Source: a virus (taxonomy: Duplodnaviria; Caudoviricetes). From it: 64,000 nucleotides of DNA. The stretch is from positions 184,670 through 248,669 of the IMG/VR virus record IMGVR_UViG_3300031998_000003. One strand, written 5' to 3'. The notes below the pieces were generated by a model. The model was given only the letters and a program-made list of their open reading frames with translations. It did no database searches and had not been told where the DNA came from. A program made the position numbers and the translations under genes. Shown here one piece after another: positions 8,831 to 31,555 of this stretch. How positions within the stretch are numbered: position 1 is the stretch's first letter; every line of letters begins with the position of its first letter.

Positions 8831-10861
8831 ATGGGCGAACGGTTTGATTGGATGGTGGATCCCAAGTATTCACTGTTCGAAGATCTTAATGACATCGCAA
8901 ATACTGATAAGGAAATCACAACGGCAAAACAAATTCATCAGTTGATCGGAGATCCGATTATCATCGACCGATACAAAGGTCATTTCGATAGTTTGTTTGA
9001 CAGGTTAGTTGGTATTGCCGAGTTGTGTTGGGGTCTAATTGATCCCGATACAAACGACAAACTTCAGCGTACACCGATTAAAATCAAACATTCCGTTGAT
9101 AATAATGATACGACCGATGTGCATGTGATTCCGCTGAATAGACTGTTGTTCTCGTTATCATTCTTACGTCCGCTGATGCCGTATATCGAAGAAATCAATC
9201 TGGATGACTTCCTGCTCAGACGATTTCTGTCACAGAAAGATCGTCAGGTCTACCAAGATATGATTGTCCGAATACTACAGAAACACGGTGTCGCAATCAC
9301 GGATATTCAGGAGAAAATGGCCCGGATGTCTCTGGATTGGAAGATGCTGTTGAAGGATTTTGCTCAAGCGGATGTTGCAATCTTCACAGCAGAGAATCTG
9401 TTCCTGGATCACTATCGTGAGGATGAGACGATTCGCGAGATCAACAACACGGAATATCCATCTGACATGCAGACTGCTGATATCGTTGAAGAAAATGCGA
9501 AACGTTGGAAAGTACTGGAAGGCATCATGACATTGCGAGGAAATCCGTTCTTCCTCTGTAATAAGTATGTCAAAGTGTTGAAACCGAAGCAAGGTGAAGA
9601 GTTGTACATCAACTTCTCTCAGATTCCTGACGGCAGAAACATCATTCCGGTTATCATGAACGGAAATGGATTCCGTGCAGGTTATGACAAGCTTCCGGTG
9701 TTCTACACAGGTGCGATTGCGTCTCGTGTTCCCGACATTATGAACAAAGACTACATGGGTATTGCTGGATATTTCAACAGAAATTTGATGATTCTCTCAT
9801 ATGGAACAATTTCTCCGACAGTCTGGGATTGCGGTTCTCAGAATCCTATTCCGATTGAAATCGATGAAACCATGCTTGAAATGATGGACGGTCGATATTA
9901 TTATAATCAAAAAGGTGATGGCATTCTGCATATTCTCAAGAAAACCGATAGAGATAAACTCGGAAAGAAGTTGTGGTTCCGTTCTCCATGTACATGTAAT
10001 CTGAATGAAGACTGCTGTCACATCTGCTACGGAACACGTGCCCTAAAGGTTGGTGACTTGAAGGGTGGATTCGTGTACACAACGGAGCAACTGACAAACC
10101 CCGTTCAACAGAATATTCTGTCGGCAAAACATCTGTTGAAATCAAATGCTGAGAAAATCGTATTCTCAACAAACTTCGATAAGTATTTCGTCATGGACAT
10201 GTCTATCATTATGCCGAAAGACGATAAGAAGTTTGACATCTATATTCGTGAGGATTATCTGGACAATATCTCTGAACAGTTTACATGCTATATCGGAAAA
10301 GATCTGGAACCAGTTACAATTTCCAATTACGCTTCTATCAATATTCCGGAAGCCGTGTTGGATAAATGTAAAGAAGTTACGATTGATGATGTGTCCTATT
10401 ATAAGATCACATCGTACAAGATACTTGAATCCGGTGGTCAGTTCTGTATGATCATTCCGATCAATATCATGATGACACAGCGTTACATGGATATCATGAG
10501 ACTGTTTGAACTCGACATTACAAAGTTTGAGAAGGTGGAAGACATTGTTACACGTCTTGCACATATGACACATAACCTAATTCCGATTCTGTCAACACAC
10601 GGTGAGATTCTGATTGGACATCATCTGCGTGCAATTGATAACAAGCTTCTTCGACCGAACTGGCTTGTTCCGGATCAGAAGTATCAGATCATGAGACTGA
10701 AGACAGTCCTTCAGAATACGGAATCGTTTACCACAGCACTTGCATTCGAGCAAACAAAACACCATCTGCTACATACGATCTTCGACGAGAGAAATGCTGT
10801 TAAGCGTGTTGGTGTTCGTTCGTTCCATGACTACATGTTTGGAGAGGAGTATGCAATTTGA
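8831..10861 (+). CDS. RNA polymerase beta-prime C-terminal half (probably non-virion RNAP)
   Basis: Bridge-helix-like AGYFNRNL, DCGS, GRYY, Zn site RSPCTC...CHICYG, trigger-loop-like QQNILSAKHLL; lies in an early operon. Confidence 0.85.
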   Translation: MGERFDWMVDPKYSLFEDLNDIANTDKEITTAKQIHQLIGDPIIIDRYKGHFDSLFDRLVGIAELCWGLIDPDTNDKLQRTPIKIKHSVDNNDTTDVHVIPLNRLLFSLSFLRPLMPYIEEINLDDFLLRRFLSQKDRQVYQDMIVRILQKHGVAITDIQEKMARMSLDWKMLLKDFAQADVAIFTAENLFLDHYREDETIREINNTEYPSDMQTADIVEENAKRWKVLEGIMTLRGNPFFLCNKYVKVLKPKQGEELYINFSQIPDGRNIIPVIMNGNGFRAGYDKLPVFYTGAIASRVPDIMNKDYMGIAGYFNRNLMILSYGTISPTVWDCGSQNPIPIEIDETMLEMMDGRYYYNQKGDGILHILKKTDRDKLGKKLWFRSPCTCNLNEDCCHICYGTRALKVGDLKGGFVYTTEQLTNPVQQNILSAKHLLKSNAEKIVFSTNFDKYFVMDMSIIMPKDDKKFDIYIREDYLDNISEQFTCYIGKDLEPVTISNYASINIPEAVLDKCKEVTIDDVSYYKITSYKILESGGQFCMIIPINIMMTQRYMDIMRLFELDITKFEKVEDIVTRLAHMTHNLIPILSTHGEILIGHHLRAIDNKLLRPNWLVPDQKYQIMRLKTVLQNTESFTTALAFEQTKHHLLHTIFDERNAVKRVGVRSFHDYMFGEEYAI

Positions 10862-11904
10862 ATAAAGTATCAGTGGGTCCGATCAGTGGCATGCTCAAAC
10901 CCAGATACAAAGTGATCTCTACACATTTGGGTGAAATATATAATCCGCTGCACGGGCTGGATGTATTCATCGATTTCAATTCATTCGTTCATAGCATATC
11001 CCGATATCAGAAGTATCTTAACTATCTTCCGTTCTCAGGTCCGGAGGTTGAGGTTGATCTGATTTCGGCATTTCTGACGACGTTAAATCATTGGAAAAAC
11101 TTCGTGAAGAAATGGGACAATATTCGTGTCATCGGATTTCTGAATAAGTTCGAAATGGGACGTCTTTGTGAGGCGTCCCAAATCAAATCGTATTTGGTTC
11201 CATACATGAATGCGTTCAAAGCAGATAGAATGCAGCAGATTGTTTATTATGTGACAGAGGCTGTTCAGAAGGTACAAACAATTCTGAAGTATGTACCGAA
11301 TATGTATCTGATCACATGTGATCAATTTGATTCAATGATGATTCCGAATATTCTGGATGACTACGAGAAGTCCGGTCGACGTCGTATCATCATTTCCGGT
11401 AATCAGTTGCTCACTGGTTATTGTCTACAACCGAACACACATGTTTTGTATTCAAGATATGGCAAACAGGGTATGCACCAGCTGTCAGATCTCGTGATGA
11501 TTGCAAAGTCAATCACGAAGGTTGAAGATGATATCGTCGCGGAGTTCACAAAGAACAAAGTCTTCTATAATCTTCTGCTTGTGATTGTTGGTGATTTCGA
11601 ACGAGGTATCGTTGGTTTGACACAAATGGGAATCACGACATTTGCGTATAATCTGTTGAGAGGTATCGAACAAGGTACCATCACAGCAAATCCCAAATCA
11701 GTTGAATCATGCCTGCCGATCATTGACAAAGTATACCATAAGTATGTATTGGATTCATATCCGTTGGTGGATATTGATTCACATACGAAGCTGATTAAAC
11801 AATCTGCAATAGAAGAAGTCAAAACGAGCATGATTGACTTTGTCGATATTGATGGATTGAGAAGTTTATCGATTGATGGATTGAATCTGTTGGAACTGCT
11901 ATAA
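10858..11904 (+). CDS. PIN/FEN-like 5'-3' exonuclease homolog with H3TH motif, apparently degenerate
   Basis: VFIDFNSF, IIISGN, GDFERGIVGLTQMGITT; TTG start overlapping the upstream TGA, RBS GAGGAG. Confidence 0.6.
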   Translation: MNKVSVGPISGMLKPRYKVISTHLGEIYNPLHGLDVFIDFNSFVHSISRYQKYLNYLPFSGPEVEVDLISAFLTTLNHWKNFVKKWDNIRVIGFLNKFEMGRLCEASQIKSYLVPYMNAFKADRMQQIVYYVTEAVQKVQTILKYVPNMYLITCDQFDSMMIPNILDDYEKSGRRRIIISGNQLLTGYCLQPNTHVLYSRYGKQGMHQLSDLVMIAKSITKVEDDIVAEFTKNKVFYNLLLVIVGDFERGIVGLTQMGITTFAYNLLRGIEQGTITANPKSVESCLPIIDKVYHKYVLDSYPLVDIDSHTKLIKQSAIEEVKTSMIDFVDIDGLRSLSIDGLNLLELL

Positions 11905-23139: not shown

Positions 23140-26100
23140 ATGATTAATGTACATGATGATGCTGATCTCCAAAAGCTAAATCGTTTTGTGAAAAATATAT
23201 CTGATAAGAATGACGTTAATGCAAACTATCATAATCTATATTTGATCAGAAAATATGATATGTCCGGTCATGTTATTGATGAAAAATATGGAATGAATCT
23301 ATGGACTGATCATGGTTTATTCCGTGTCAATAATACCGGATCATCATCGAAAACCCAATTTTATTTGATATTTGGCACGGGTGATGTGACACCCGATTTC
23401 GCTGATATCACGATGACAAATCTGGCGTTCAGTGTATATCCAAATATCACGTTATCGATTACCAGATATCCCATGAAATATGATTCTGAAACAGATCTGA
23501 TATCAGAAGTTTGTACATTTGGATCTGGAACGCTTGATTACAATCTCAGCGGTGTATCATCTGACGTTGAAGTTACTCATTTCGGAATCTATACAAATGC
23601 TGAATCTGGCCAAAAACTCATAGTTCATTCAAAAGTATATGATGCCAATGGTATGGAGTCTTCGTTCACGAAACATCCAAATGAAAAAGTTGTAATCACT
23701 GTGTATCTGAAAGGATGCTTGTTATCAAAATTGATAACAGACGCCTATAACAACGGCATCTATGCATCATTTGTCGGATTTCATTCCACATTGTTAACAT
23801 TGTATGATTCATCGTATATCCGTATGATGTATGATAACGAGCAAACAGCTGTCGGATCTTATTTTTATGGATATATACCTTCTGGTAGCAGTTATAAAAT
23901 TCCATTTGGTAACGGTGAAACAGTTGATGCATCAACCCATGAACGCACCTCGGTCCGTTCACGACAAAGCGGCACCAGTACATTGATTACACATAATGCT
24001 CAATATGTATCATCGCTTGCCGTGAACTGGTATGGTGGATTGCTGCTACATGCGGATGTCAAAATGTCACAACCTGAAGAAATCACATGTGATTGTGTGT
24101 ATACTGAAGGAAATCAATCATTTGAGTTCATGCGTCCATTCGGATATCCAGCACGTCGAAACAACGCACAATACAATTTTGATTCGTCAAATAGAATGGA
24201 TGGTTGTATACCTGTTAATGATTTCGTCATTACATCGTCATATATGTGGGATTATTCAACAAAAGATTGGACAATACAAGAACAGTTCAGCAATCCCGAT
24301 CCCGGAAAATATGTATTTGTACCATTCTTCAAATCTGATAACGATCTAAACGGTGATACCAGGTACACAACATTTTCAAACAATTCATGGCAAGGTGCTT
24401 CTAGTCTTTGGATTAACGATGCTGATGGAATTGGTGTTGCCGTATTTATCAGAACAAACAAGCACACTAATATTCCGATTAAAAAGTTCATGACCGATGG
24501 GACTGCCATGACAGTTTATGGAACGAACAAATACTGGGATGGATCGACATATGTAAAGATCCCAACATATGCAAGTGATATTCCCTCAGAATGTCGGAAC
24601 TTCAAGTATTATTTATTTACACAAGACATCAGTGCTCGTGCAGAATACATCTATTCTGATCCAGATGATGTTCCGCACATTGTACCAACACGACAGCCGT
24701 TCGATATTGACATTCCGGAACTGGAAAGTGAATCCAGTAGTTTTAACGGGGGACTTAATCTACTAGCATCAACAACAAACGGATGGATTGCGACATTTGA
24801 TCATGTTGTATATCCGTATGCCCAAGGTGGACCTGTTGTGTATTCACTGATACCGTATGAATTAAATGGGCCTATGAAGAATCATGTGTTGATTGATGTT
24901 GAAAACAATATCAATGAAGTCACTTGGCAATCTGGTAGATTTGATTCAACCGGAGCGCTCGTTGCAGATTCGTATGCCTGGTATACTGATCAAATTTTCG
25001 ATATCACTGGATATCAACATCTTTGTTGGCAAGGCACATTCACCCCAACACAGAATCGCGGTGACAGAATCATCTACTATCTATATGATGCAGATGAGAA
25101 TTTTATCTCACTTATAAATTCAACCGACACGACAAATAGTGTTGGAAATCTGAAAAACGGCATATTTGATAATCTTCCTGATAATGTGAAATATGTCCGC
25201 TTTGGATTTTGGAGAAAATATGGATATGGTGATCCAGAATCACCAAGTGTCATACAGAAACTATCGTACTGCGAACTATTCCTATTTAAACCGGCACTGA
25301 ACAAACGTTATGCTACAAAAGATCGGATTTTAATGACAAATGTTTATCTATGCCATGGTTCGGAGACAGCATATCGACCGGATTCCGGTCATTCCAATTA
25401 TCCGGGGAAATATTCGCACTGTAATATTCTCATTGCAAAGGTCGGTTCAGATCCAACAGTACCACCTGAATTCCAACTTATAAATTTCCCATACCATGTA
25501 CCGTATAGGCACCTGACAAGTAGTCTCATGCACAGTTTTGACGAATATACCGGATTCTATGTTATATCAAGACCAAATACTCAGCGGGGCTCTGATGTTC
25601 CAATGAAAGTATTTGGTCTTGATTTATATGCAATCGATAATGGTACATCAAATCCGTCTGATAATGATGCTGAGATGTTCTATATTGGTGATGGATATGG
25701 CTGTAAACTGTGTAAAAAATACAAGTGGTGCTCATATTTTGATGCAACGAATGCACATATAATCCACGCATATGATCTCGAAAATCGTACAGAAATTTGT
25801 ACATTCACAATTGACAATACCTATACAATCGACGTGTATTCTCAGGTATATAATATCGGACACTACATCTATGTGCCATGTAAAAATGGAAGCAAAGAAA
25901 CTGTGATATTATGTGATATTGAATCACAACGCTGGGAAGAAGTTGACACATTTACATCACCAACATTGTATAACATTTCATATCGAAATTTCAATTCCAT
26001 AAATAACGGCTATTATTGGAATGATGATAGTGTTTTGTCATTGAATTTTGATCCATGCTGGGCTGGATTTGCAACAACTGGATTCACGGATGGTGATATG

Positions 26101-26676
26101 ATTTCATTAACAGGTTATTATTATTATGATGGATCTGTTGTTTATAATGGAACAATTACTTCCGATGAACCTCGTAAATGGAATAAGAGTATTCGAACAA
26201 CCACTTACGTATCTAAAAGTCAAACATATGTGGCGGCACCGTGTGGTGTATACAATGATAATACAATAACAGCAGGTGTGACTCGGTTGATTCTAACGGA
26301 CGACGGGAAACATTTGCTTGGTATTGGACGAATATCGAATCCATGGTTATCAGATTCTTACGCAGTATTTGATGTTGGAATGTATATGAATAATGGTCAG
26401 TCATATCGATATGGTGACGAGACAGAACCATATTATTACATTCAACAACCAGTATTTAGAACTGCACCGTTAGAAAACTCTGTAATCACATATTTCGATG
26501 ACGGCATCATTGCATATGCTCCCGGAAAAATCAGATGGTCTCCATTGTCATGCTGGTTACCTCATAAGGTGACAGGTACCACATATACCATTCAGGCATA
26601 CAATAATCCAAAGAATATTTCAGGTGGTTCAATTACAATGAAAATCAGTAATCGGATACCAACACTTCCGATTTAA
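23140..26676 (+). CDS. Tail fibre/receptor-binding protein (paralog of 19921)
   Basis: NLYLIRKYDMSGHVIDEKYGMNLWTDHGL; VYGTNKYWD; WLPHKVTGTT...NPKNI; extra internal domain WQSGRFD...YDADENFIS...NVKYVRF. Confidence 0.7.
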   Translation: MINVHDDADLQKLNRFVKNISDKNDVNANYHNLYLIRKYDMSGHVIDEKYGMNLWTDHGLFRVNNTGSSSKTQFYLIFGTGDVTPDFADITMTNLAFSVYPNITLSITRYPMKYDSETDLISEVCTFGSGTLDYNLSGVSSDVEVTHFGIYTNAESGQKLIVHSKVYDANGMESSFTKHPNEKVVITVYLKGCLLSKLITDAYNNGIYASFVGFHSTLLTLYDSSYIRMMYDNEQTAVGSYFYGYIPSGSSYKIPFGNGETVDASTHERTSVRSRQSGTSTLITHNAQYVSSLAVNWYGGLLLHADVKMSQPEEITCDCVYTEGNQSFEFMRPFGYPARRNNAQYNFDSSNRMDGCIPVNDFVITSSYMWDYSTKDWTIQEQFSNPDPGKYVFVPFFKSDNDLNGDTRYTTFSNNSWQGASSLWINDADGIGVAVFIRTNKHTNIPIKKFMTDGTAMTVYGTNKYWDGSTYVKIPTYASDIPSECRNFKYYLFTQDISARAEYIYSDPDDVPHIVPTRQPFDIDIPELESESSSFNGGLNLLASTTNGWIATFDHVVYPYAQGGPVVYSLIPYELNGPMKNHVLIDVENNINEVTWQSGRFDSTGALVADSYAWYTDQIFDITGYQHLCWQGTFTPTQNRGDRIIYYLYDADENFISLINSTDTTNSVGNLKNGIFDNLPDNVKYVRFGFWRKYGYGDPESPSVIQKLSYCELFLFKPALNKRYATKDRILMTNVYLCHGSETAYRPDSGHSNYPGKYSHCNILIAKVGSDPTVPPEFQLINFPYHVPYRHLTSSLMHSFDEYTGFYVISRPNTQRGSDVPMKVFGLDLYAIDNGTSNPSDNDAEMFYIGDGYGCKLCKKYKWCSYFDATNAHIIHAYDLENRTEICTFTIDNTYTIDVYSQVYNIGHYIYVPCKNGSKETVILCDIESQRWEEVDTFTSPTLYNISYRNFNSINNGYYWNDDSVLSLNFDPCWAGFATTGFTDGDMISLTGYYYYDGSVVYNGTITSDEPRKWNKSIRTTTYVSKSQTYVAAPCGVYNDNTITAGVTRLILTDDGKHLLGIGRISNPWLSDSYAVFDVGMYMNNGQSYRYGDETEPYYYIQQPVFRTAPLENSVITYFDDGIIAYAPGKIRWSPLSCWLPHKVTGTTYTIQAYNNPKNISGGSITMKISNRIPTLPI

Positions 26677-26691
26677 CTGATTTCCTATCTA

Positions 26692-26700
26692 TATATTATT
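26692..26700 (+). promoter_or_regulatory. Early-type promoter TATATTATT driving a non-coding region
   Basis: Exact motif; no RBS-led ORF downstream. Confidence 0.7.
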
Positions 26701-26703
26701 AAG

Positions 26704-26821
26704 GTGAATACTGACAGAACTGCGCGGTTCCGGATAAAACAGGTTAGAGTCTAACCAGCCTGCCGGGTGTTCTCCGCCTCTATGAGGTTTATGCCGCGAG
26801 ATTGCAACTGTCAGTTTTCAT
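26704..26821 (+). ncRNA. Structured ncRNA 1 (unknown family)
   Basis: Closing stem GTGAATACTGACAG/CTGTCAGTTTTCAT; inner stem CGCGGT/GCCGCG; arms TCCGG..GGTTAG-AGT-CTAACC..CCGGG and GCCTC-TAT-GAGGT. Confidence 0.65.
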
Positions 26822-26826
26822 ATTTA

Positions 26827-26970
26827 AAGACGCATGGGGTGCAAGCATTTTCATAAGTATCCACAATGTACACGGTTGTGGTATGGAGAATATGCGGTAT
26901 GGGAAAATATGTGTTCGTGCCTAGACTGGGGTACAGCATATGGAACCATATTGACAGCCTCATGTGTCTT
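26827..26970 (+). ncRNA. Structured ncRNA 2 (unknown family)
   Basis: 14-bp closing stem AAGACGCATGGGGT/GCCTCATGTGTCTT with G-U pairs; two long arms; T9 run follows. Confidence 0.65.
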
Positions 26971-26994
26971 CATTTTTTTTTGTAACGATAATGA

Positions 26995-27039
26995 GATTAT
27001 GGGGGCCGATGGCCCCCATAATCCATTTGTTTTTTTTTT
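26995..27039. terminator. Terminator between convergent units
   Basis: GATTATGGGGGCC-GAT-GGCCCCCATAATC plus T tract on the plus strand. Confidence 0.8.
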
Positions 27040-30000
27040 AGATTGCGTTGAGCACGATACTTGCGTCATCCAGGACAAACATTTCAGGAACATATCGTTC
27101 AAGCTCTTTTGTTGGGAAGTCTTCGATGGTATCCCACATTTGAACAATACACTGATAATCAGCATTCATGTAGTTTCCATGCGGGTCTCCCTTTTCGTCA
27201 GTGTACCATCCTTTGAACTTCAGATATGCAACGTTTGGATGTGACTCCAATTGCTGAATCAGTTGAGAGATGTAGATATTGTTATCCATCGAAATCATAT
27301 CAACCGGTGTATGAATTGAAGTCAAACGGTTAAAGTACGACTTAATGATATTTCTGATTTCCTTGAATGTGATTGTTTCCATAGCAGGATTAAACAGATG
27401 AACATCGAACTCAAGCTGTACATCCAACGATGGCCAGAATAATTCATTCGTATCCGCAGTTTCTGTATCTGTACGAGATTCATAGATCTTTTTACTCACA
27501 TCAGATGCATACGAGTGAGGATATCCGTATGTCGCAATTAGTTTGCAATCCAGATAGTTGTTACCCTCAAGACGTTTGAAGATAACCGGCTCAATCGCTT
27601 TGTGAATCTGTGTGAATGAGGCAACAAACTCATCGAACTTTTCAGAATTCATCAGAGTATGCTGGACGAATGGGACCAACTGAATTTCAATTGCTGAATC
27701 AACCGATGTACCAGCATATGCTTCGGATATCATCGTCGGATAATTTCCAATCTCCCAAGCGAGTTCAGACCATTCACCTTCAGTCAGATCAGTTGTTGTG
27801 AACACACTCTTCAGTTTCACAAGCAGTAATTCCAGTTTGATATAATGCTCTTGATTTTGAACAGGTGGAATACTTGTTTCAACACTAACATCAGACTGAT
27901 TGATGGATACTTTCAGACCAGTTCCATCACTACCTGAAATACGTTCGGTCATAAGTTGTGTGGTATCACTACCGCCCATCATTTCAGACCAATCATAATC
28001 TTCATAATCGACAGTGATTGCAGCTGTTCCAGTATCCCATTCAATATTGTCACCAACATTTGTCAAAGGTGTGATACTCCATACTGGTCCAGTTTTATCA
28101 TCAGATGCACTGTTATATCCATCAACGATAAATGCACCTTTTGATGTAGCACCATTGGCAAATATAATGCGTACAATATCACGGCTGTATCCTGTACCAC
28201 CGGCTTCGATATTCACTTTTCCGATCTTATACTTAATATTGTATGTACGACGAATGTCATCCAATTTGTTCAACATATCGCCAGCAATCTTTTGTATTCT
28301 CGGGAAGTCTGATGTGCTGGAATGATTCAACGCATATGCCTGAATGTCAACCAAATTTTCAGCATCATTATCACTGCTGCACAGTTCCATGAATGCATTA
28401 TAAGAATCGATTTCGTTTTGAGACGGAACATGATTCTCACCAAACTTCACGACACTTCGCATTTCTTTGAGTTCCTGCAGCAGCGACATATTGTCGACCT
28501 TCCATCGATCCATCAATCGATATCCAGTATAGTCAGTGTTATCAAGGAATTCAGTTGGATGTAACGGATCGCTTGATTCAAACAATATGGATATTTGAAT
28601 CTCTGGATTGATTGCATTGATAACGATCTCACCGTTGTATGATGTGGGATGCCATGCACCACCGCCGTGATCAACAGATGCAATTTGAATACGATTGTCA
28701 GATCCTATAAGCTTATTCAACGGATTTAGAATCGCCTCGAATTCAACACTTCCGTCAGAATCAACATTCTTCGGAATCATCTCCAACCAGCCATTTGTAT
28801 TTCCATTGATACGAGTCTCCAACATAACACGCATCTTGTTCTGATTCAGTGGAATCTGTGTGTTTACCATCGTGAACATTGGGATGTCAGGTGTGCTCGC
28901 AAATGTCGAGAATGGAACACGTGTATACAAGACGGATGCCTCACTTGGAACAGGTTTCATCTGCGCATACAATATGATTCCAGGTTCTTCATCTGATGCA
29001 ATCGTATTGGTCAGATCGAATACCATCACACCCGTCTGAGGATCTTCAAAAGGTGTAATGGGAATATCAACATACATTGCGTTATCGATCGTTACAATAA
29101 CACCGTCGGGATGGCCAGCATCAACCAGCGTAAAGCTGACGCTTCTGTTTTGAATACCGATTCGGTACAAGTCTTGTTCATTGAATGTCTGATACTTTTC
29201 TTTGGTGACATAGTTTGCGTCAACTTTGATTGCCGTTACATAACCATTTTGAGATGTTTTCAGACGAAGATCATAATGTTGTGAATGTTCAGCTTGTTCA
29301 AATACATATGGGTCTGTTCCCGCACCATTGACGCTAATACCACTGATTGTGATAGTAGTGTCATCACGTTGGTAGACTTTATTACCATCTTGCATACAGA
29401 CACCATTGTCACCCCACAATTCAGCCGAACCGATATATTTATCGTATCCCTGAATGCGCATTGCGGTCAGCTTCTTTGCATTAGTAACAGGATCAACTTC
29501 CTCGATCCAGAAATCTGACAGAATGATTTTATTTGGATCATTTGTATCAACGACTCTGTCACGGACGCACATATATGTGTTCTCTGGATCGAACAAAATG
29601 TATTTATCCTTTGGATTCTGAACAAGAACCGGAACATTGACTTCATATAACTCAGAAGGACGTTCGAAGTAATTCCACAGTTCTTGATTGAACTGCGGTG
29701 TACTGATCATGGTCTTCGTGACTGTAACAAATTTCTCTCCATTGATAGTTCCGCCTGTTGATGGTGACACAACAATCTTCAGTCTGTAGTAGTCTTCCAT
29801 GAAGTTTCTTGTTACTTGGACGAGTGTTGGTGTTGCGTGATAGATTAGCGCCGTATCATCTTCATCTTGGACATATTCATGATTGGTTGGGACATTTGTT
29901 GCAGTTACAACAGAATTGATCCATGGATTGAAATATCCAATCGCAAATGGATCTTTCTGAATACGGATCCCAAATGGATTCGCAAAGATGAATTTAGATC

Positions 30001-31468
30001 CGATTGCGAATGATGTCTTAGCTGTTTCGAATTTACCATTCGATCCAAGCAGTGGCTCAACAGTATACTTTCTAGCGTCGCCGCTTGTATACAACCACAC
30101 AAGTCCTGGTGGAATGATAATTTCATTGGTGGCATACATGTCACCTTTTCCGTCATCATTCATGTAGAGATACTGATACGGAATCTTTGCATGTAGCGTA
30201 TTCGTACGGAACACGTTGTCCTCAGCATCTTTCAATGCGATGTATCCACTCCAGATGCGACCCCATGGATCATCACGGCGTTTGAAGAAGAACGGATATA
30301 GTACATTCTTAAAGTGGAATGTGTTGAACCATTCTTCTATATCATGATCCGATGAGATCACATTTGCAGTATTATATGCCTCAATAGTTTCACGACGCGT
30401 TGTTTCAATCGTGCCAATATTTGTACCCGCTTTACTTGCCGAAATAACAAACACAGCTTTCATGACATTTCCATTGTTTGAATACTTGCTCGATGATGTG
30501 ATAACACCCGGTTGTTCATCAGTCTTAAATGATGAGAAGTTTGCTGCTTCACCGTGGCATGTGTATACAGTGATCTCATATGATGAATTCAACTTCGGTA
30601 CAAAGTAACGGGTACCGTTCAGCTGGAACATGAATCGGATTGTCTTTGGTGAATCCATGATATAATGAACATATGGTTTCTGATCATTAACATCCGAATG
30701 AATTGGGAGAATGTGATCATGTGGGATGTATTCTTCTTTACCAGATCCATCAATATACTTGATGTCAAATCCAGCAATATGATTTGTACATGTGATCAAA
30801 GCATCCTCGTTTGGAATTCCGTTCGTCATGTTGTTCACGACGACATGTGTCTCGCGTTCATACTCTGACGCTTTGACGAATAGACACAACCATGTTTCAG
30901 ATACACGATACAAGATGTATGGATCTTTGTTTACAGCAACAGAATTCATCTGATCCATATTGATGTATTGCACATTCCACGCCGGAGCGGACGATTGAAT
31001 GGTTGCTGTTGCCTCACTCTTGTACTGAATTAGAATGTCATAGTCCAATGAGTACACACTGCCGTTGGATAGATTGAACTTCGTGTTCTTGTCAAGAATG
31101 AACTCATACAATCCATTGTCAGAATTGAATGTTGCATTCGCCATCAAATCTTTGATGCGGAGTTCCAACATGAAATTGCAGCATGACGGAGTTGCATATG
31201 AATAACCGATATTGAAGATTGCTGCCTCTGAGTAAATGGAATCAGCCAACATCGCTTTCGTAATGAATGATTCATTATGATAGAATGACGCAGTAAATGC
31301 CATGTTCTCAATTGCTTGTGACATATACTCATTAATGATCGAGAACGAGCCTGTATTCAGAATATTCAATGGAATATCTTTGAACACACGTGGCATCAAT
31401 ACGTCTGAAATGTATCGTTTGATTTGAGCATCATCCGAATAGTTATTCAGCGTAACTGTATCAGCCAT
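27038..31468 (-). CDS. Baseplate wedge protein
   Basis: NESFITKAMLADSIYSEAA, LDYDILI, VYTCHGEAANF, FFKRRDD, NIYISQLIQQLE, YLKFKG, VPEM motifs of jumbo-phage wedge proteins; start refined to ATG 31468 after AAGGAGG. Confidence 0.8.
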   Translation of the reverse strand: MADTVTLNNYSDDAQIKRYISDVLMPRVFKDIPLNILNTGSFSIINEYMSQAIENMAFTASFYHNESFITKAMLADSIYSEAAIFNIGYSYATPSCCNFMLELRIKDLMANATFNSDNGLYEFILDKNTKFNLSNGSVYSLDYDILIQYKSEATATIQSSAPAWNVQYINMDQMNSVAVNKDPYILYRVSETWLCLFVKASEYERETHVVVNNMTNGIPNEDALITCTNHIAGFDIKYIDGSGKEEYIPHDHILPIHSDVNDQKPYVHYIMDSPKTIRFMFQLNGTRYFVPKLNSSYEITVYTCHGEAANFSSFKTDEQPGVITSSSKYSNNGNVMKAVFVISASKAGTNIGTIETTRRETIEAYNTANVISSDHDIEEWFNTFHFKNVLYPFFFKRRDDPWGRIWSGYIALKDAEDNVFRTNTLHAKIPYQYLYMNDDGKGDMYATNEIIIPPGLVWLYTSGDARKYTVEPLLGSNGKFETAKTSFAIGSKFIFANPFGIRIQKDPFAIGYFNPWINSVVTATNVPTNHEYVQDEDDTALIYHATPTLVQVTRNFMEDYYRLKIVVSPSTGGTINGEKFVTVTKTMISTPQFNQELWNYFERPSELYEVNVPVLVQNPKDKYILFDPENTYMCVRDRVVDTNDPNKIILSDFWIEEVDPVTNAKKLTAMRIQGYDKYIGSAELWGDNGVCMQDGNKVYQRDDTTITISGISVNGAGTDPYVFEQAEHSQHYDLRLKTSQNGYVTAIKVDANYVTKEKYQTFNEQDLYRIGIQNRSVSFTLVDAGHPDGVIVTIDNAMYVDIPITPFEDPQTGVMVFDLTNTIASDEEPGIILYAQMKPVPSEASVLYTRVPFSTFASTPDIPMFTMVNTQIPLNQNKMRVMLETRINGNTNGWLEMIPKNVDSDGSVEFEAILNPLNKLIGSDNRIQIASVDHGGGAWHPTSYNGEIVINAINPEIQISILFESSDPLHPTEFLDNTDYTGYRLMDRWKVDNMSLLQELKEMRSVVKFGENHVPSQNEIDSYNAFMELCSSDNDAENLVDIQAYALNHSSTSDFPRIQKIAGDMLNKLDDIRRTYNIKYKIGKVNIEAGGTGYSRDIVRIIFANGATSKGAFIVDGYNSASDDKTGPVWSITPLTNVGDNIEWDTGTAAITVDYEDYDWSEMMGGSDTTQLMTERISGSDGTGLKVSINQSDVSVETSIPPVQNQEHYIKLELLLVKLKSVFTTTDLTEGEWSELAWEIGNYPTMISEAYAGTSVDSAIEIQLVPFVQHTLMNSEKFDEFVASFTQIHKAIEPVIFKRLEGNNYLDCKLIATYGYPHSYASDVSKKIYESRTDTETADTNELFWPSLDVQLEFDVHLFNPAMETITFKEIRNIIKSYFNRLTSIHTPVDMISMDNNIYISQLIQQLESHPNVAYLKFKGWYTDEKGDPHGNYMNADYQCIVQMWDTIEDFPTKELERYVPEMFVLDDASIVLNAI

Positions 31469-31555
31469 TAGAAACCCTCCTTGGTTGTTTTGTTTGTGGG
31501 TTCGAAAACCCAAATGTAATGTTTAACACCTAACAATATGGTGTTCGAACAACAT

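Follow-up and report, generated by a model that had tools for sequence, protein, structure and literature searches.

To our knowledge, phages encode few structured RNAs apart from tRNAs, and a function is known for almost none of these. Bacteriophage T4 produces two small, stable, structured RNAs of about 120-140 nt, rnaC and rnaD (species 1 and 2), which are carried on one transcript, located in the tRNA cluster, and matured with the tRNAs. In the jumbo phage AR9, the early promoter of the virion RNA polymerase (RNAP) was experimentally defined in a transcriptome study as AAATATATATTAT-N6-G+1 (PMC5312081), and the AR9 units described are protein-coding. In phiKZ and 201phi2-1 (Chimalliviridae, infecting Pseudomonas), intergenic and 5'-UTR-derived small RNAs have been reported (PMC11512511; review PMC13282480), which are shorter than 250 nt, arise mostly by premature termination in 5' UTRs, and are located near tail genes. 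The functional core of the phi29 pRNA, about 120 nt, contains a three-way junction and kissing hairpin loops (PMC4201828), and in the THF-I aptamer a three-way junction is bridged by a terminal loop that docks into a receptor formed by an internal loop (PMC6614920).

Here we describe a cassette encoding two tandem structured RNAs, which is a genuine accessory non-coding RNA (ncRNA) gene of an uncultured clade of rumen jumbo phages distantly related to AR9. Unlike T4 rnaC and rnaD, it has its own promoter and terminator and lies far from the tRNA region. It shares the promoter core and the spacing to the G start with the AR9 early units (PMC5312081), and both AR9 and the source phage have multisubunit RNAP genes, a genome of about 250 kb, and early promoters among late structural genes; the AR9 units, however, code for proteins and the cassette does not. 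Like the phiKZ and 201phi2-1 small RNAs, it belongs to jumbo phages with their own RNAPs, its structure is conserved among relatives, and it is function-unassigned, but it is a stand-alone two-domain unit, and no sequence or model relationship to those RNAs was found. The cassette is thus a well-bounded unit with unusually clear covariation that is listed in no RNA catalogue and is optional in RNAP-carrying giant rumen phages.

Genomic setting

The window, that is, the whole stretch of 64,000 nucleotides analyzed here, is the final 64 kb of its IMG/VR source record (248,669 bp, 92% complete, GC 42%). The cassette is a complete non-coding transcription unit (26687-27039, + strand) in a 361-nt intergenic gap, and the coordinates of its parts and of the two flanking genes are collected in Table 1. 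Elsewhere in the window, the neighbors include genes for a topoisomerase II large subunit, a multisubunit-RNAP beta-like protein, a tape-measure/lysin-like protein, and a virion structural protein; the ORF at 8831-10861 matches phrog_3015 (RNA polymerase beta subunit) with E = 1e-36, beta being the only subunit checked. In a tblastn search, the 1491-aa protein encoded convergently to the cassette matched only AR9, PBS1, Goe21, Internexus, BpSp, and three Staphylococcus jumbo phages, at ~23% identity, and its AR9 homolog, g212, is located amid virion genes. Because of these matches and the g212 homolog, the source phage is classified, on protein similarity, as an uncultured phage distantly related to the group of the Bacillus jumbo phage AR9. 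Nucleotide BLAST against 50,697 phage records gave no match to the cassette region or to the 14 kb around it, and an ARAGORN search returned no tRNA or tmRNA. About 20 sequencing runs from 13 studies contain part of the stretch, and the runs containing it carry bovine or sheep gut labels; coverage was examined in four of them.

Table 1. Positions in the window of the parts of the cassette and of its flanking genes
Feature	Position	Strand	Description
Upstream ORF	23140..26676	+	1178 aa; co-directional with the cassette; no Pfam/PHROG family
Early-type promoter (predicted)	26687..26705	+	ATCTATATATTATTAA and spacer; core TATATATTAT at 26690-26699, then N6 = TAAGGT
Predicted transcription start, G+1	26706	+	AR9 spacing rule; also first nt of the module 1 closing stem
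Module 1	26706..26819	+	about 114 nt; same architecture in MFE folds of five homologs
Module 1 P1	26706-08 and 26710-17 with 26808-15 and 26817-19	+	closing stem
Module 1 P2	26723-27 with 26794-98	+	inner stem, past an asymmetric internal loop
Module 1 arm P3	26730-33/26763-66 and 26740-45/26757-62	+	on the three-way junction
Hairpin-loop motif GUCUAAC	26749..26755	+	GUCU(A/U)A across lineages
Junction GUGU	26767..26770	+	conserved; always 14 nt after GUCU
Module 1 P4	26776-80/26784-88	+	small variable hairpin on the three-way junction
Internal-loop strand AGAUUGCAA	26799..26807	+	between P2 and P1; conserved
Inter-module spacer	26820..26826	+	A/U-rich; A-rich spacer in all lineages; candidate processing site
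Module 2	26827..26970	+	about 144 nt; z = -5.8
Module 2 closing stem	26827-40 with 26957-70	+	14 bp, to the three-way junction
Module 2 arm A	26845-26895	+	three-way junction arm
Arm A loop GUACA	26868..26872	+	GUAC(N) loop
Module 2 arm B	26896-26952	+	three-way junction arm
Arm B loop UAGACU	26922..26927	+	second GUAC(N) loop as it reads in the window and L009; GUACU elsewhere
T9 run	26973..26981	+	2 nt past the module 2 closing stem; U-run here in all lineages
Canonical terminator	26995..27039	+	GC-rich hairpin 26995-27023, then T10 27030-27039
Convergent ORF	27038..31513	-	1491 aa; no Pfam; only phrog_18960, function-unassigned; distant AR9 g212 homolog

The preliminary description had placed the unit between convergent operons and concluded from this that it is not a UTR. 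The convergence of the flanks is borne out, but the conclusion holds only in part: the upstream gene is co-directional and no terminator was found between its stop codon and the cassette, so read-through from that gene would also carry the RNA as a 3' tail. The flanking operons are probably late, judging from the structural-looking neighbors and the virion genes around the distant g212. At the downstream border, the T10 of the + strand terminator (27030-27040) overlaps the TAA stop (- strand) of the convergent gene, and the terminator hairpin, read in the - direction on that gene's strand, is followed by no U-run. A replication origin or terminus at the cassette was also considered and rejected, as there is no GC-skew extreme at the locus.

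Promoter and predicted transcription start

The motif TATATTATT, found at 26692-26700, occurs in five copies in the window against 0.59 expected, and the longer element ATCTATATATTATTAA (26687-26702) occurs in seven copies in the 248,669-bp genome. The remaining six copies of the longer element are each followed by an 80-140-nt structured leader, then GGAGG, and then ATG, which agrees with the earlier remark that the motif elsewhere precedes early protein operons. Compared with the AR9 consensus, the cassette promoter ATCTATATATTAT-TAAGGT-G (26687-26706) agrees at 11/13 positions, and the 10-nt core is identical. All cassette copies have a promoter of the form TATATAT(T/A/G)AT-N6-G, and in 7/7 lineages the closing stem of module 1 starts at the predicted +1 G, which faces a C. 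Several contigs from DNA runs align only over 26666-26710 and then diverge into other sequence, and the promoter element is therefore repeated in related genomes.

With this consensus match and the RNAP beta-like gene, the promoter is assigned, as a prediction, to the AR9-type virion-RNAP (early) class, so that the early-promoter rule of AR9 would also apply in a large clade of uncultured phages. We infer the early timing of cassette transcription by analogy with AR9, whose homologous protein is only ~23% identical. A 5' end near 26704 and RNA species of ~118 and ~145 nt had been anticipated, and the computed values (26706, and about 114 and 144 nt) come close to them.

Overall fold, terminators, and coding potential

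The + strand over 26700-27040 folds with a minimum free energy (MFE) of -126.9 kcal/mol (z = -6.4), whereas the - strand fold is weaker (-102.8 kcal/mol, z = -5.0). The + strand is better by 24 kcal/mol, and many of its G-U pairs become C-A when read on the other strand. Folded singly, module 1, module 2, and the terminator have z values of -2.8, -5.8, and -6.5, respectively. The terminator hairpin has 13 pairs, 8 of them G-C, with a T-run behind it, as is characteristic of an intrinsic terminator. Both modules consist of a long closing stem and a three-way junction bearing two arms. The arrangement proposed in the preliminary description, namely two self-contained modules of shared architecture, an AT spacer (26820-26826), and a T9 run (26973-26981) followed by a terminator (26995-27039), was thus reproduced, with the same folds in homologs. 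Its statement that no RBS-led ORF follows the motif also stands, because none was found in the cassette and no ORF is common to all homologs. Together with the AR9-type promoter and the conserved covarying folds, this agrees with its proposal of an early ncRNA cassette.

We compared the sequence with Rfam 15 at several levels. The whole window gave zero matches at the gathering score, the region 26500-27200 gave only terminator-driven noise at E<=10 (E 0.45-6), and three divergent homologs, L035, L036, and L037, gave nothing relevant at E<=1. The covariance-model search of the window and three homologs is in line with the earlier failure to assign a family. By these searches, the two structured RNAs belong to no Rfam family and are assigned to a new RNA family with strong comparative support.

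Module 1

The closing stem P1 of module 1 leads through an asymmetric internal loop to P2 and to a three-way junction bearing P3 and P4. In the alignment A9, 95.2% of 207 cells were paired and 27/33 pairs were changed on both sides, with compensatory change at every P1 and P2 pair; since A9 is fitted to the module 1 model, these values need unfitted evidence alongside. None of 500 shuffles attained the module 1 values, and slid alignments were 37-44% paired. The conserved nucleotides are located in the loop, junction, and internal-loop strands (Table 1), the 3' strand of the internal loop reading AGAUUGCA(A) across lineages. Pairing between GUCU in the hairpin loop and AGAU in the internal loop is possible in 7/7 sequences (27/27 cells), and because both motifs are invariant it shows no covariation. 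Module 1 may thus be a compact junction fold, with the conserved GUCU loop docking on the conserved internal-loop strand AGAU.

Such a fold would resemble the THF-I aptamer, and more generally the class of three-way junctions with remote tertiary contacts, in its closing stem, internal loop, second stem, three-way junction, and loop complementary to an internal-loop strand. Module 1 does not, however, match the Rfam THF family; it lies outside any 5' UTR, no folate gene is close by, and the cassette is followed on its strand by two terminators and the 3' end of the convergent gene. An alternative pairing of the 5' end with GGUGUUC was rejected because it fails in L013, L036, and L037.

Module 2 and contacts between the modules

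Four homologs of module 2 gave z values of -5.9, -8.8, -6.1, and -3.5. In the unfitted MAFFT alignment A5, which contains four sequences, 89.8% of the cells were paired and 13/44 pairs were changed on both sides, compared with 27-61% paired in slid controls. The window, L009, L008, and L013 have a long form of module 2, and L036, L037, and L045 a short one; the core common to both is a long closing stem with two adjacent hairpins. In 5/7 lineages (L008, L013, L036, L037, and L045), GUAC(N), where N is A, U, or G, caps both of these hairpins; the hairpin stems covary and the GUAC loops are unchanged. When RNAalifold was applied to the three short-form sequences (L036, L045, L037), the two GUAC segments paired together, illustrating their self-complementarity.

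In the window, the arm B loop UAGACU (26922-26927) is perfectly complementary, over 6 bp, to the module 1 loop AGUCUA (26748-26753). This complementarity may be coincidental or may mark a kissing contact between the modules; as a general feature, kissing between the module 1 and module 2 loops was rejected, since it is found in the window and L009 only and not in L008 or L013. Two other ideas were also discarded: the modules are not copies of each other, as each model matches its own module only, and there is no network of GUAC-loop operators, as the rest of the genome shows no enrichment of GUAC-loop hairpins.

Homologs and distribution

Relatives were found through homologs of the 1491-aa protein, which served as a synteny anchor, in contigs from SRA (Logan), ENA, JGI, and IMG/VR. 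The cassette was found at the same site, downstream of and convergent with the gene for this protein, in six further lineages. The carriers include L009 and L008, in which the flanking protein is ~70% identical, L013, L014, L015, and L035 (47% identical), and L036, L037, and L045; L045 is IMG/VR record G009 (262,694 bp), where the flanking protein has 1334 aa. Every copy has the early promoter, the +1 G in the closing stem, the A/U spacer, the U-run after module 2, and a second, canonical terminator. Divergent homologs, each folded independently by MFE, adopt both architectures again (z between -2.6 and -8.8). The idea that the RNA is more conserved than its flanks proved false, the nucleotide identity of the modules being no higher than that of the flanking genes. 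Evolution preserves the fold, and not the sequence, of both modules. Conservation with covariation, which the preliminary description had proposed to look for in relatives, thus extends over seven lineages.

The cassette is present in 2/21 related IMG/VR genomes. When 20 related IMG/VR records were searched whole with R3, a model built from seven module 1 sequences, only G009 gave a match; 19/20 records are cassette-free, and five of these are at least 96% complete. At the cassette site, L005 (G002) and L033 show no more than a terminator or a gap of 38 nt. In L012, where the identity of the flanking protein is 51%, a promoter of the same type precedes a 72-aa ORF at this site (10432-10900, - strand). 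Because R3 matched in G009 only and relatives have gaps or another ORF at the site, the cassette is regarded as single-copy, syntenic, and optional, and early-promoter cassettes seem to have a hot spot here.

Single-sequence models gave no match in any of the IMG/VR relatives G001-G004, and the region around g212 in AR9 contains no homolog of either module. A scan of IMG/VR for the motif GTCTAAYCA..GAGATTGCAA returned 13 matches, all of which were chance on inspection; a stricter pattern had 0 matches in GTDB genomes and 0 in JGI metagenome contigs, a set that evidently lacks the rumen samples containing L035 and L036, so that its zero carries little weight. We also screened for a partner protein by co-occurrence, comparing G000 and G009 with five RNA-negative genomes. 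As many as 105 ORFs are shared exclusively by the two positives, and the screen is therefore not discriminating. A block of ~18 kb (G000 70.9-88.6 kb; G009 198-217 kb) has protein identities of 70-100%, far above the genome-wide level. The five RNA-negative relatives lack this block, and no Pfam/PHROG family was found for ten of its ORFs. It was likely exchanged recently between these phages.

Coverage in a sheep-gut metatranscriptome

In contigs of a sheep-gut metatranscriptome, the depth was 4.1 over 26300-26464 and 2.4 over 26480-26710, the two contigs in the upstream gene, and 12.5 over 26722-26920. No contig extended beyond 26920, the downstream gene included, and such gaps are not evidence of absence; three DNA runs were flat over the same region. 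As assembled contigs from one library, which carry no ends, strand, or level, these data give a weak hint that the RNA is transcribed separately from, and more strongly than, its neighbors.

Possible functions

The promoter, the helix-buried 5' end, the dense structure, and the double terminator argue for a stable, abundant, early, trans-acting RNA. In the explanation that we tentatively favor, an AR9-type virion RNAP would start transcription at about 26706, the first base already lying in the closing helix of module 1, and the transcript would fold into two independent three-way-junction domains. Transcription would end at the U-run behind the closing stem of module 2, with the canonical terminator as a backup, and the RNA may be cut in the A/U spacer, a candidate processing site, into pieces of ~114 and ~144 nt. 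The abundant, nuclease-resistant product would act in trans by binding protein, as a decoy, sponge, or scaffold, and not by coding or by long antisense pairing. Protein binding is favored because conserved loops and junction strands are carried on covarying helices, because the loop is twinned, and because the cassette behaves as a moron-like accessory; two neighboring GUAC(N) loops would suit a dimeric RNA-binding protein or nuclease, or a contact between the loops. Against this view, the second GUAC loop is altered (AGACU) in the window's own lineage. The absence of GUAC-loop enrichment in the genome, the lack of covariation in the GUCU:AGAU pairing, and a possible origin of the RNA by read-through from the upstream operon also count against it. 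Taken as a whole, the explanation is plausible, if somewhat short of probable. The patchy distribution fits better with an accessory for host takeover or counter-defense (an "RNA moron") than with core replication or assembly. The narrower proposal that the cassette is a new kind of counter-defense RNA, a highly expressed early decoy whose twin GUAC(N) loops or module 1 pocket would trap a host immune protein, a sequence-specific endoribonuclease or toxin, or an immune signaling nucleotide, is unlikely; if true, an accessory RNA would do a job known mostly for small phage proteins. The cassette offers two new junction folds for RNA structural biology and a candidate for RNA-based host takeover or counter-defense, and even if the effect of protein binding were modest, it would remain a new, well-defined RNA family.

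The main rival to protein binding is regulation by base pairing in trans, with AGAUUGCAA, GUCUAAC, and GUGU as seeds for phage or host mRNAs. All three of these short motifs are wholly or almost invariant, no pairing is predicted for them, and GUGUUCUCC in the window lineage is complementary to GGAGAACAC at or beside the RBS of two phage genes (genome 21,672 and 48,593). However, the anti-RBS stretch is lineage-specific, reading GUGUCAACC, GUGUCCAAA, and GUGUCUCUC in other lineages, and the complement of AGAUUGCAA is equally frequent in five RNA-negative relatives (4-15 sites each). As neither a conserved target site nor c4-like anti-RBS pairing was found in the phage genomes, we regard such a riboregulator as doubtful. 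Since the upstream gene is co-directional with no terminator ahead of the cassette, and since a U-run after the module 2 stem is followed by a second terminator in all lineages, the unit might instead be a cis-acting 3'-end module of the upstream operon (a stabilizer, insulator, or double terminator) with an incidental promoter. In most relatives, however, a plain terminator hairpin suffices at this spot, every copy has the early promoter with its +1 at the first base of the closing stem, and termination would need far less than ~260 nt of three-way junctions that covary and carry conserved loops, which makes this role improbable as well. The location of the conserved nucleotides in the junction and loops would also suit a ligand-binding, riboswitch-like RNA, in which a module 1 aptamer sequesters a small molecule or tunes termination or antisense read-through into the 1491-aa gene. 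This is quite improbable: no Rfam riboswitch matched even at E<=10, there is no same-strand gene downstream, two strong terminators in series oppose regulated read-through, and no mutually exclusive alternative pairing is kept across lineages.

A structural or catalytic role, either phi29-pRNA-like assembly or packaging through palindromic GUAC loops or self-cleavage by a ribozyme that separates the modules, is suggested by the resemblance to the phi29 pRNA, another ~120-nt phage ncRNA, in which a three-way junction is combined with hairpins that kiss (PMC4201828), and by the self-complementary GUAC, which occurs twice in module 2 in 5/7 lineages. The arm loops of module 1, unlike the kissing loops of the pRNA, are not mutually complementary, and the two GUAC loops of module 2, in which intra- and intermolecular pairing are indistinguishable, are not found in the window or L009, one of the pair being lost in the window lineage. 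Neither the Rfam pRNA model (E<=10) nor any ribozyme model matched, and no conserved candidate cleavage-site motif was found. Furthermore, the pRNA is essential for packaging, whereas the cassette is dispensable, being absent from most close relatives, which still must package their DNA; a role of this kind is very unlikely. An overlooked small protein gene is hardly credible. The only candidate, a 39-codon ATG ORF (26866-26985) inside module 2, is common to the window, L009, and L008 but missing in L013, L036, and L037, and is taken as a by-product of sequence identity. It has no Shine-Dalgarno sequence although the genome uses strong GGAGG sites, and in the cassette indels are not multiples of three and substitutions are pairwise compensatory.

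Other early-promoter units

Outside the window, two early-promoter units of G000 (L060, 48,474-48,600, and L061, 136,375-136,500) have paralogous 5' leaders of ~125 nt with unrelated small genes downstream. The leaders follow the pattern GUGAAUA..CACCCC..UUCCGGGUA..GCCGCC..GGAGGC; they matched no Rfam family at E<=1 and are aptamer-like in look. In AR9 itself (KU878088, L034 5500-5890, - strand), an annotated early promoter between the virion genes g214 and g213 drives a short unit with a ~100-nt leader, an unannotated 15-codon ORF preceded by GGAGG, and a terminator, ahead of a virion-protein gene. From its layout, this looks like a small stand-alone early unit within the AR9 late region.
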